NCBI GenBank assembly: GCA_046327925.1
Contig: JAXLXM010000001.1
Coordinates: forward strand, 462,390 to 526,389
Length of the DNA: 64,000 bases
Origin: Candidatus Binatia bacterium
GTDB taxonomy: Bacteria > Desulfobacterota > Binatia > HRBIN30
Direction of reading: 5' to 3'
Position 1 is the stretch's first letter. The number at the start of each line of letters is the position of its first letter. Below, in pieces: positions 20,220-22,374 of the stretch. A program made the translations under genes and the position numbers. Under the pieces are notes generated by a model. It was not told the DNA's origin. It ran no database searches and saw only the letters and a program-made list of their open reading frames with translations.

Positions 20220-20489
20220 CTATCGGCCGCGCGTTGAGGGAAGTCCCAGGCGTTTTCCTACCGCGTCGCTCGACAGCCCTCCTTCGGCCTCCTGCCGCTT
20301 TCGCGATCGCTCCAGGATCGCCCGGAACTTGGCGTTGACGCTCAGGAGCATGGTCTCGGCGTCGCGTTCGTCGCCGGGGACTATGGTCGCCACGACATGC
20401 CCGCGGTCGGTGAGTAAGAACGGCCGAACGGCGCCGCGCTTGAGGTGAGGAACCACGGCAGACACCTCCGGCAATTCAACGGCTTTCAT
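20220..20489 (-). CDS. Phd/YefM-type antitoxin-like protein (no adjacent toxin)
   Basis: 89 aa, strong GGAGGAAA RBS. MKAVELPEVSAVVPHLKRGAVRPFLLTDRGHVVATIVPGDE... followed by C-terminal NAKFRAILERSRKRQEAEGGLSSD, typical of Phd/YefM-like antitoxins. Confidence 0.65.
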   Translation of the reverse strand: MKAVELPEVSAVVPHLKRGAVRPFLLTDRGHVVATIVPGDERDAETMLLSVNAKFRAILERSRKRQEAEGGLSSDAVGKRLGLPSTRGR

Positions 20490-20588
20490 AATTCGATTTC
20501 CTCCATGCCGACCCGCCGCTCATTATGTCGCTCGATGCCGCCGGCCGCAATCTTGACTAGCGTCTCGGGCTCCTCTCACACCGCGTAG

Positions 20589-21045
20589 AACACCCGAATC
20601 TGGCCCAACCGGAGTTCTCAGGGAGCAATCGGATTCGGGGGGAGAAGCGGCGCAAGCGCGCGGAGCGTGCCGAGGCACTGGTGAAGGTCCCACTATTTCG
20701 GCATCAGCCACACCTACACGGGGTTGCGGGCACTGGAGGAGTGGGTGCGTCGAAGGGTGCGGGTGTACTCCTGGAAGCAGTGGCAACAGCCCCGGACTCG
20801 CCGCCATTTGATCGCCTTGGGTATCGCGCCCGCGAGGGTACTGGCGGATGAGTGCCAACAGCATCGTCCAACGCGCCCTGAATAACCGCCGGCTGCGCGC
20901 ACAGGGAGTTCCCGACAGGCGCACCTTACGGATTGGTCGTCACTACGGGCCCCACAGGCCCGTGTCCGATCGGAACCGCCGTATGCAGACCCGCACGTCC
21001 GGTGGTGTGGCAGCCCGGCTGGCCCTCACGGGTCAGTCCCGGCGA
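20589..21045 (+). mobile_element. 5'-truncated, frameshifted group II intron remnant (maturase C-terminus plus domains V/VI)
   Basis: Plus-strand translation gives (in-frame TGA) RSHYFGISHTYTGLRALEEWVRRRVRVYSWKQWQQPRTRRHLIALGI, then after a frameshift MSANSIVQRALNNRRLRAQGVPD. This is a typical maturase (GIIM) domain tail. 20975..21006 (AACCGCCGTATGC-AGACCC-GCACGTCCGGTGGT) matches the domain V hairpin pattern CCGUAUGC...GCACGU.CGG. An 11-bp bulged hairpin at 21015..21042 sits in the domain VI position. Boundaries are approximate. Confidence 0.7.
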
Positions 21046-21050
21046 GCCGA

Positions 21051-21389
21051 TTAGCTCCCGACTATCTCATTGAGGCCATCGACGAGCCGGTCCTGCTCCT
21101 CCGGCGTCACCCGGCCCAATTTCCGGCCGAGCCGGTCCACCGACAGGGAGCGGATCTGACTGATCTTGACCCACGAGCGTTTTGGCAGGCGCACCTTCTT
21201 CAGTTCCATCGTGAGCGGAAAGCTGGCGCGCTGCGGTTGGCTCGTCACCGCCATGGCGATCACCGTTCCGGATCGCTGATTGAAGATGTCATGGCTCAGC
21301 ACAACCACTGGCCGCAACCCGGCTTGTTCGTGACCCCGGGCAGGGTTCAAGTCGGCCCAAATGACATCACCTCTCAGTACGCCGGCCAT
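21051..21389 (-). CDS. mazF: MazF/PemK-family type II toxin (endoribonuclease)
   Basis: 112 aa. [45 protein letters not shown]...[16 protein letters not shown], a classic PemK/MazF pattern. Overlaps the antitoxin gene by 16 nt. Confidence 0.9.
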
Positions 21390-21616
21390 TCGGCCAACTC
21401 TCCGGACAACCCTTCATCCGCCAACGCCTTCTCGAACGCTGGGTCGAGCTTGGCGCACTCCCGGGCGAGGCGGGACCGATCAAGCCGTTCCAATTTTTCC
21501 TTTACAGCTTGTTCGATTGCCTTGCTCCGGTTCGGAAACGTCTGCTGCCTCACCAACCGATCGAGCTGTGCGAGAACGCCCTCGTCGAGAGAAATGGCCA
21601 CCTTTGCCGCTGCCAT
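21374..21616 (-). CDS. mazE: Ribbon-helix-helix (CopG-type) antitoxin paired with MazF
   Basis: ORF 21374..21709 trimmed to ATG 21616 (AGAGGTGAG RBS). [45 protein letters not shown], an RHH fold signature. Confidence 0.8.
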
Positions 21617-21628
21617 GCACTCACCTCT

Positions 21629-21649
21629 GGTATGATTCGTTATCATACC
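21629..21649. promoter_or_regulatory. Perfect palindrome upstream of mazE (candidate autoregulatory operator overlapping a -10-like TATGAT)
   Basis: GGTATGAT-TCGTT-ATCATACC lies 13 nt upstream of the mazE ATG. TA operons are classically autorepressed at palindromes in this position. Confidence 0.5.
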
Positions 21650-21695
21650 GCGGATCCGCGCCGCAACCTTGCGGACGGAGCTACCGTCGTGCGCC

Positions 21696-22013
21696 TCAAC
21701 CGCGCGCACGTCTCTTGCGCGGCGGCTGCAGGCGCTTGTTCGGCCGGGATCGACTCACGAGTGGAAAACGCTCTGGATGGTCGATTGAATCAACCGCCAC
21801 ATCGACGTCGAGATCGGGCCAATACAGATGGTGCGGATGCGGGAGCTCGACGTTGCAGAGTTTCCCGATCGGGACGTCGCGAAACCACGGGAACTGCTCG
21901 AAGGAGACAAAGCGCTCTCGACCCTCGAGCAGCAGCCAGAATCCATGTCGTGAGACGTTCGTGACCTCAACCGCCGAAGTGGGCTCTCCACGCATCGCGG
22001 ATTTCACCTTCAT
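21696..22013 (-). CDS. DUF2442 domain protein
   Basis: Tail of ORF 21696..22205 from ATG 22013 (alternative ATG 21995). [68 protein letters not shown] matches the DUF2442 pattern (L.WP.LD.D..V..L). Confidence 0.7.
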
Positions 22014-22365
22014 GCTCCGGAACAAGCCGCCGCGATTGAGGACGTGCGCGTACACCATCGTCGTGCGGACGTCCCCCCTGCACAGTGCGAATATCGTAGC
22101 CATCGCGCACCAGATCGGCGGCGAACGAATGCCGGAATGTGGGGCAGCCGACGTGCGCCAGGGCATCCGGGAGGTACACCGCCCCGACCCTCCTGGCGCA
22201 CCCACTCCTCATACGTCGCCCGCAGCTGCGCTACGGGCGTGCGCAAGGGCTCTCTTACTGCCGCCGGCAAGGCTTGCAACGATCCGTGGCGCGCCGCCTG
22301 CGCGATGCGCCGGCGACAATTGCAACGTTCGCCGACAGCTCGTGCGTCGGTGAAATTCGCATACG
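22014..22365 (-). pseudogene. Integron-integrase-like tyrosine recombinase relic (N-terminally truncated, internal deletions, two frameshifts)
   Basis: Three minus-strand frames concatenate. The first gives LPAAVREPLRTPVAQLRATYEEWVRQEGRGGV. After a shift near 22177 comes [33 protein letters not shown]. After a shift near 22077 comes GDVRTTMVYAHVLNRGG. This is collinear with the IntI1 segments LPESLAPSLREQL...[42 protein letters not shown] and DVSTTMIYTHVLKVGG. Confidence 0.75.
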
Positions 22366-22374
22366 AAAAGACGC

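Follow-up and report, generated by a model that had tools for sequence, protein, structure and literature searches.

Within a stretch of 64 kb from a Candidatus Binatia bacterium (GCA_046327925.1, contig JAXLXM010000001.1, positions 462,390 to 526,389 of the forward strand; called the window here, with all positions counted within it), an island of about 2.1 kb is located on the minus strand between catabolic genes. Its limits, taken from the homology breakpoints, are 22370 and 20223, nearly equal to the 22374 and 20220 of an initial annotation made from the sequence alone. The 5' neighbor is acxC, encoding the gamma subunit of an acetone carboxylase (PF08882, stop codon 22377-22375), and the 3' neighbor is a gene for an F420-dependent LLM oxidoreductase (PF00296, start at 20210 or 20204). 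On the minus strand, an intI pseudogene is followed by a DUF4160 stub, a DUF2442 gene with an attC site, mazEF, an antisense group II intron relic, a ParE-like pseudogene, and a Phd-like open reading frame (ORF) (Table 1). The initial annotation had proposed a decayed integron as a hypothesis and had listed an integrase relic, DUF2442, mazEF, the intron relic, and an orphan Phd-like antitoxin; all five were present in this order and on this strand, as judged by three-frame reading, matches to PF10387, PF01402, PF02452, and RF00029, and the ORF of 89 amino acids (aa). Overlooked had been the DUF4160 stub (22025-21967), the attC site (21744-21680), and the ParE-like pseudogene (20647-20486). Related contigs and loci used for comparison carry L numbers (L004, L086, L103, etc.).

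Table 1. Features of the island in the order of the minus strand, with the evidence for each
Feature	Position	Strand	Evidence
intI pseudogene	22026..22362	-	three-frame reading, TIGR02249, blastn to L004 intI
DUF4160 stub (last ~20 codons)	21967..22025	-	alignment with L092/L094, frame translation
DUF2442 gene, intact, 105 aa	21696..22013	-	PF10387, E 5.8e-14; exact protein MFN8624765.1
attC of the DUF4160-DUF2442 cassette	21680..21744	-	covariance model R1, 27.2 bits, E 2e-4
Perfect 8-bp inverted repeat	21629..21649	no strand	sequence and conservation in L087, L088, L103, L111
mazE, RHH antitoxin, 80 aa, intact	21374..21616	-	PF01402, E 3.6e-7
mazF, PemK/MazF toxin, 112 aa, intact	21051..21389	-	PF02452, E 7.6e-30
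5'-truncated intron relic, probably group IIC	20648..21051	+	RF00029, GIIM, nucleotide identity to L086/L085 introns
ParE-like toxin pseudogene	20486..20647	-	tblastn, E 4e-22, 62-68% identity
Phd-like antitoxin ORF, 89 aa	20220..20489	-	homologues paired with a 99-aa ParE-like gene

The joined conceptual translation of the intI pseudogene reached 74.4 bits with the NCBIfam model for integron integrases, TIGR02249, and only 26 bits with those for XerD and XerC, while Pfam returned just the generic PF00589. Its closest homologue, P0001, with 79% identity in the aligned region, is encoded by locus L004 on the JGI contig Ga0118657_10009391; on the DNA level (blastn), the relic and the intI gene of L004 share 93% over 116 nucleotides (nt) and 77% over 145 nt. 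After repair of a single frameshift, the IntI of L004 scored 452 bits, with a curated cut-off of 265 bits for this model, and it contains the IntI-specific patch. By its sequence, the recombinase relic is thus a descendant of an integron integrase, in agreement with the initial annotation. About one third of the gene is left. Approximately 170 N-terminal codons are gone relative to L004, a deletion of about 165 nt takes out the IntI-specific patch (RKYPNA...IGK), the relic also has a further deletion of 14 nt (ELLGH) and a 1-nt frameshift, and the reading ends after HVLNRGG. A full IntI with its specific domain is consequently not encoded here, as the loss of the patch, the frameshift, and the 74 bits compared to the cut-off of 265 bits demonstrate, and tblastn with residues 175-219, 268-300, and 296-315 yielded no further IntI-like sequence in the window. 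The codon spacing of the KDR-LP motif is 8 nt instead of 9 nt in the relic (22240-22290) and also in the intI of L004 (9950-10000). The inactivating frameshift may be older than the split of these two lineages; yet the attCs of L004 are still well formed.

Fragments of a tyrosine recombinase next to toxin-antitoxin genes, with PF00589 as the sole Pfam match, are also typical of a remnant of a prophage or an integrative and conjugative element that carried a phage- or XerCD-type recombinase and accessory toxin-antitoxin genes. Against such an origin, the score with the integron-integrase model was 48 bits above those with the Xer models, the closest homologue contains the IntI-specific patch and exceeds the curated cut-off, and phage or conjugation genes were absent from the island. 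The attC sites and cassette boundaries described below refute it, so that its probability is close to nil.

A strict scan for RYYYAAC...GTTRRRY pairs with a hairpin found 0 attCs in the window, in line with the remark in the initial annotation that no canonical attC could be recognized by eye. The same scan picked up many attCs beside metagenomic relatives of this IntI; because it overlooked genuine attCs of related arrays as well, it was dropped and replaced by a covariance model, R1, built from an alignment of 19 attCs adjoining related integrases. In this alignment, 89% of the cells of the R and L boxes were paired with strong covariation (25-38% in slid controls), and R1 recovered attCs outside its training set at 31-55 bits. 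Run on both strands of the whole window with filters off, R1 delivered a single, full-length outlier, the attC in Table 1, with the next score in the window at 18.2 bits, and the plus strand of the same position at 9.0 bits; unrelated acetone-carboxylase loci, 1.17 Mb in total, gave no score above 19.0 bits. The E-values of R1 are rough, and weight was placed on this empirical control and on orthology. The R'' box of the site is GCCGAAC, its L stem is intact with single-base bulges, and its R' box has decayed to GGTAGC compared to GTTAGGC, by a change of GTT to GGT plus the loss of 1 nt. The bottom strand folds with -20.8 kcal/mol (z -2.5). Not seen by eye, one degraded attC has thus survived, together with two stubs of R'' boxes at 21056-21051 and 20227-20223. 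The second-best match of R1 (27728-27793, plus strand, E 0.03) is located where the fourth CoA-transferase gene ends; it has no AAC/GTT boxes and probably represents a GC-rich hairpin. A candidate R' box GTTGGGC with an L'-like flank (minus strand, 20610-20604) was rejected since it falls within the ParE-like pseudogene (ELRLGQ).

All three modules of the island, DUF2442, mazEF, and ParE/Phd, recurred as attC-flanked cassettes in other contigs with 70-97% aa identity, which corroborates the claim that the cargo is of the cassette type. The attC match of the window covers the last 16 codons of DUF2442 and encodes the basic C-terminal tail of this protein. A DUF2442 copy from the same 90%-identity cluster was present in arrays of small same-strand ORFs (L092-L096), where an overlapping DUF4160 gene (PF13711) always precedes it and an orthologous attC of 33.3 bits stands at the end. 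Compared to the cassette copy in L092, the DUF2442 protein of the window is 82% identical with a ratio of nonsynonymous to synonymous substitution rates (dN/dS) of 0.11. Only the last 20 codons of DUF4160 remain in the window according to the alignment with L092 and L094. The 3' end of intI is fused straight onto this stub at junction J1, where ...CGCGGCGGC is followed by TTGTTCC with a CGGC microhomology.

The mazE and mazF genes overlap by 16 nt. With a PemK/MazF toxin following an overlapping, small DNA-binding antitoxin, they constitute a predicted type II toxin-antitoxin system, and their products are 91-97% identical to those of the cassette copies (dN/dS of mazE, 0.03-0.12). The inverted repeat GGTATGAT-N5-ATCATACC precedes mazE at a distance of 12 nt. 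Its arms do not differ among the cassette copies, and it is likely the operator/promoter region predicted for MazE. Both ends of this cassette were defined by comparison. Its start, (G)TTAGCTC, follows four different upstream sequences, which are strong attCs in L103 and L111, a sequence with no recognizable attC in L087, and the DUF2442 attC, reading GGTAGCTC, in the window. Its end in L087, L103, and L111 is GGGAGCTAAC, with the TAA stop codon within R'', and in L103 an attC of 47.9 bits comes next. The last 6 nt of mazF in the window (AGCTAA, 21056-21051) are accordingly the retained part of the R'' (AGCTAAC) of the mazEF attC; beyond the intron relic, no remnant of the rest of this attC was found. 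In the Binatia metagenome-assembled genome (MAG) GCA_023150935.1, strong attCs flank mazEF (the attCs of L103, at 2600, 3162, 3634, 4334, and 5389, score 40-55 bits; L111 is similar). The mazEF cassettes of L087 and L088 have no recognizable attCs, and these two loci could therefore be used only as empty R'' sites. L103 itself (1-8339) contains a well-preserved array of the attC-bounded cassettes HicBA, HEPN, mazEF, and DUF5677 between a helicase/PDDEXK gene pair and the gene for a type I restriction R subunit, with no integrase seen in these 8 kb. It is a candidate for a hybrid with a defense island or for a cluster of attC sites lacking integron-integrases (CALIN).

In L118-L121, the ParE/Phd pair forms a cassette between attCs of 44-57 bits. 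It starts with TTCGGCGG after three different attCs and has its own attC at the end, and its boundaries, like those of the mazEF cassette, are identical across different neighborhoods. The homologues of the Phd-like ORF measure 95-115 aa and always follow an overlapping ParE-like gene of 99 aa. Residues 47-99 of this toxin, with two in-frame stop codons, are left in the window, and the Phd-like ORF is without the basic tail of 6-26 residues that its relatives encode inside the attC. Homology to the cassette ends at GGCCGA, and 20227-20223 (GCCGA) is the stub of its R'' box, GCCGAAC, without the final AC. At this breakpoint, J3 (20220-20227), the bottom strand is cut at GT/T, which is the target position of the intron and not the crossover point G/TT of IntI; no intron sequence was present there. 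Gene context supports the 89-aa ORF as the antitoxin partner of the ParE-like toxin. The label "Phd-like" is weakly backed by sequence and fold: the window protein matched no Pfam or NCBIfam model and the family no PDB profile, 6 of 11 homologues matched PF02604 weakly with E-values of at least 0.009, and a predicted model with a pLDDT of 65 had antitoxins as its top fold matches at non-significant E-values of at least 0.05. The designation as an orphan Phd-like antitoxin thus holds in that a working toxin is absent; the Phd assignment itself is less secure, and the ParE-like pseudogene upstream had escaped notice.

The intron relic comprises the C terminus of a maturase (about 20691-20930, with a 29-nt deletion and frameshift) and the domains D5-D6 (20974-21051). 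The latter matched RF00029 with 29.9 bits (E 0.004), below the gathering score of 40, and the best of the maturase-domain matches was GIIM with an E-value of 1.4e-4. Nucleotide identity to the introns of L086 and L085 is 78% and 74%, respectively, from 20692 to 21055, with weaker similarity back to about 20650; the 5' limit is somewhere in 20648-20692, and the last base overlaps the mazF stop codon. Both of these introns matched RF02001, and so did a known IIC-attC intron that abuts blaIMP-4 in antisense on plasmid NZ_MZ643942.1. The intron of L086 is full-length. It begins with GTGCG right after ...ATTGT and sits at TTGT/T. On the 5' side, the exon consists of the bottom-strand hairpin of an attC, which R1 scores at 16.9 bits on the cassette strand; on the 3' side, the exon begins with T and adjoins the stop codon of an antisense ORF. 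The published target consensus of IIC-attC introns is TTGT/T in R'' (PMC7923331; PMC3001079). In the window, the intron ends with ...GCCGAT and the exon resumes with TAGCTCCC, where the empty sites read ...GT and then TAGCTCCC. On the cassette strand, the occupied site is GGGAGCTAA followed by the intron, compared to GGGAGCTAAC in L087, L103, and L111, and the empty site of L111 reads CTTGT/TAGCT. Since the occupied and empty sites match the TTGT/T target and the intron is antisense to the cassette, insertion point and orientation are canonical for a IIC-attC intron in the bottom strand of an attC at R'', the geometry that the initial annotation had suspected.

Only about 400 of about 1,870 nt of the intron are left, D1-D4 and the reverse transcriptase domain are gone, and the maturase is frameshifted, so that this is no complete mobile element. 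Searches of 84 loci, including 81 IntI loci, and of the remaining window revealed no other copies. An assignment of the subclass by tblastn against plasmids was abandoned, with 38-44% identity to an integron-borne intron and equally to one away from integron genes. The R'' of the DUF2442 attC also contains the intron target motif CTTGT/T in an unoccupied state (plus strand, ...GCGCTTGT followed by TCGGC, 21732-21744).

At its 5' end, the intron relic is joined to parE codon 47 and not to an attC. This junction, J2, arose by a later deletion, in which the remainder of the mazEF attC was lost as well. L099 (Logan SRR26348421), a strain 99.96% identical over 2.3 kb downstream, contains more of the parE pseudogene in place of the intron relic: in L099 1-92, aligned to 20640-20731 of the window, parE residues ~20-46 continue, with a preserved W codon at the position of a stop codon in the window. 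For this reason, the J2 deletion is regarded as recent and polymorphic. The divergence of L099 upstream of 20639 would also be expected from an assembly chimera, in which two loci sharing a repeated intron sequence had been joined and the link between acxC and the LLM gene was not real. Independent short-read assemblies match both flanks of the island at 99.6-100% identity and break inside the relic. All 9 of the 9 short-read contigs either stop at 21023-21025 or start at 20719, and the 303 nt in between are hence a repeat in those metagenomes. Against a chimera, the source contig of 965,913 bp suggests an assembly spanning a 300-nt repeat, the two ends of a single truncated intron copy are found on the two flanks, and the genes on both sides (acx, CoA-transferases, LLM, SDR) form one functional set, which is also found together in relatives. 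A chimeric join is therefore judged very unlikely.

The relic, the attC, and the cassettes are all on the minus strand with the relic upstream, which is the arrangement of the inverted integron-integrase group; the co-directional orientation noted in the initial annotation holds in the window and also in L004. There, acxA, acxC, four CoA-transferase genes, an SDR gene, intI, and two further ORFs are on one strand, and two cassettes with attCs of 39.5 and 50.9 bits follow intI on this strand. Among the related IntI loci with detectable attCs (n = 28), 16 were co-directional and 10 classical. Alternatively, the cassettes may have been put at a secondary site by an integrase encoded elsewhere, similar to a CALIN, and the relic would not be the platform that captured them. 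Insertion by IntI outside att sites is documented (Cury 2016, PMC4889954; bioRxiv 10.1101/2022.09.11.507474), and an attI was not recognized here. The relic is, however, directly upstream on the same strand in the exact architecture of L004, intI and then attC cassettes, and J1, which lies within intI as well as within DUF4160, is the scar of a deletion and not a recombination site. This alternative is accordingly given a very low probability.

The position of the island "inserted in the middle" of the cluster, as the initial annotation had it, was not demonstrated. In L004, the integron is at the end of the catabolic cluster, and the gene order around acxABC varies among relatives: acx, CoA-transferase, and LLM/F420-reductase/OYE genes are arranged differently in the window (27580-36433), L004, and L194, with four CoA-transferase genes preceding acxB in the window and such genes following acxC in L004 (four) and L194 (three). 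A scan of a genome collection with AcxC gave no close Binatia relative (best match, 72% identical); L194 is the one close Binatia contig, and its gene order is different. An integron at the cluster edge, followed by rearrangement and deletion, fits equally well as an insertion. A co-directional integron beside acetone-carboxylase/CoA-transferase genes was seen in two diverged genomes. That the integron had docked co-directionally at the 3' end of an acetone-carboxylase/CoA-transferase operon in this lineage, with cassettes expressed by read-through from a catabolic promoter of the host and the surviving mazEF guarding the cluster against loss as an addiction module, is an unlikely scenario. 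As a further hint within this scenario, the position of J3 at GT/T would suggest that IIC-attC introns helped to weld cassette remnants to host genes.

Taken together, the island is very probably the decayed remnant of an "inverted" chromosomal integron in Candidatus Binatia, and the integron hypothesis of the initial annotation was borne out in every part that could be tested. Several points weigh against this interpretation. Just one attC is detectable, with 27 bits compared to the 31-74 bits of typical intact attCs. Neither an attI nor a Pc promoter was recognized beside intI, the 3' end of which runs straight into the DUF4160 stub. A close relative with an empty acxC/LLM junction was not found. 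The join across the intron relic (20720-21022) is backed by the MAG contig only. Target site, orientation, and relatives, and not phylogeny, suggest the IIC-attC subclass, and the low pairwise dN/dS values mostly reflect the history before the decay and are no proof of present function.

The data show what each piece is, where the cassettes begin and end, the attC, and the site targeted by the intron, and we infer the following order of events. IntI would have captured three cassettes at attC sites, DUF4160-DUF2442, mazEF, and ParE-like/Phd-like. Next, a group IIC-attC intron would have entered the mazEF attC by retrohoming, on the bottom strand and at GT/T within R''. Later, the platform would have been inactivated and eroded by illegitimate deletions. 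At J0, the 5' half of intI would have been cut off beside the acxC stop codon, and internal deletions would have taken out the IntI-specific patch. At J1, intI codon ~315 would have been joined to DUF4160 codon ~48 with loss of attI, at J2 the middle of the intron to parE codon 47 with loss of most of the mazEF attC, and at J3 the Phd cassette would have been cut at its R''.

With no integrase, no attI, and a sole attC with a mutated crossover triplet, the island should be unable to recombine any more. With its two ORFs and its operator repeat undamaged, mazEF is probably still an active addiction module. The DUF2442 and Phd-like genes are orphans. Simple scans, including one for sigma-70-like motifs, found no promoter or terminator consensus in the island, and the surviving ORFs are for this reason probably transcribed together with the surrounding catabolic genes on the same strand.

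Degenerate chromosomal integrons and CALINs with a neighboring intI pseudogene are a known kind (Cury et al. 2016, PMC4889954). Like them, the island has an IntI-derived pseudogene beside toxin-antitoxin-rich attC cassettes from a once-complete integron. Unlike in the usual CALIN, the decay has gone further, with truncated cassettes and a remnant welded between catabolic genes; a CALIN as defined in IntegronFinder contains at least two attCs and no nearby integrase, and the 64 kb of the window held one attC above noise. With intI pointing in the same direction as the cassettes and the cassettes downstream of its 3' end, the island resembles the inverted integron-integrase group of the Treponema type, which is reported to be paraphyletic (Cury et al., PMC4889954). 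The host here belongs to the Binatia and not to the Spirochaetes, however, and relatives of this IntI show both orientations, which agrees with the paraphyly of the group.

The intron relic resembles the IIC-attC introns S.ma.I2 and Kl.pn.I3 in its position in the attC bottom strand at R'' (TTGT/T), its antisense orientation, and its 3' end abutting the cassette stop codon. The intron beside blaIMP-4 (NZ_MZ643942.1) has the same geometry, and UHB.F1 is 5'-truncated like the relic (PMC7923331; PMC3001079), and truncated IIC-attC introns in arrays were already known (PMC7923331). In contrast to these IIC-attC introns, the 5' break of the relic joins an unrelated pseudogene, which points to a later deletion and not just to abortive reverse transcription, and the last 92 aa of the maturase are only 38.5% identical to those of an enterobacterial intron. 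The toxin-antitoxin cassettes of sedentary chromosomal integrons, for example those of Vibrio (PMC13108822), are likewise self-contained two-gene units with their own regulatory repeat and abundant in arrays; in contrast to these, mazEF alone is intact here, and the two other pairs have lost DUF4160 or the ParE-like toxin.

The island is a well-supported decayed integron and, as such, an ordinary case of the known decay of integrons. It provides the anatomy of the death of an integron on the nucleotide level: which parts go first, how toxin-antitoxin pairs are split into orphans, and that one pair survives. The comparison of occupied and empty sites shows IIC-attC targeting outside of the clinical integrons where it was defined. 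Full-text literature searches gave no paper that pairs the term integron with Binatia or Binatota, and integrons of the inverted type are documented here in this little-studied group. Finally, the origin from cassettes accounts for four ORFs amid catabolic genes that are "hypothetical" or orphans, and it cautions against their annotation as genes of the pathway.

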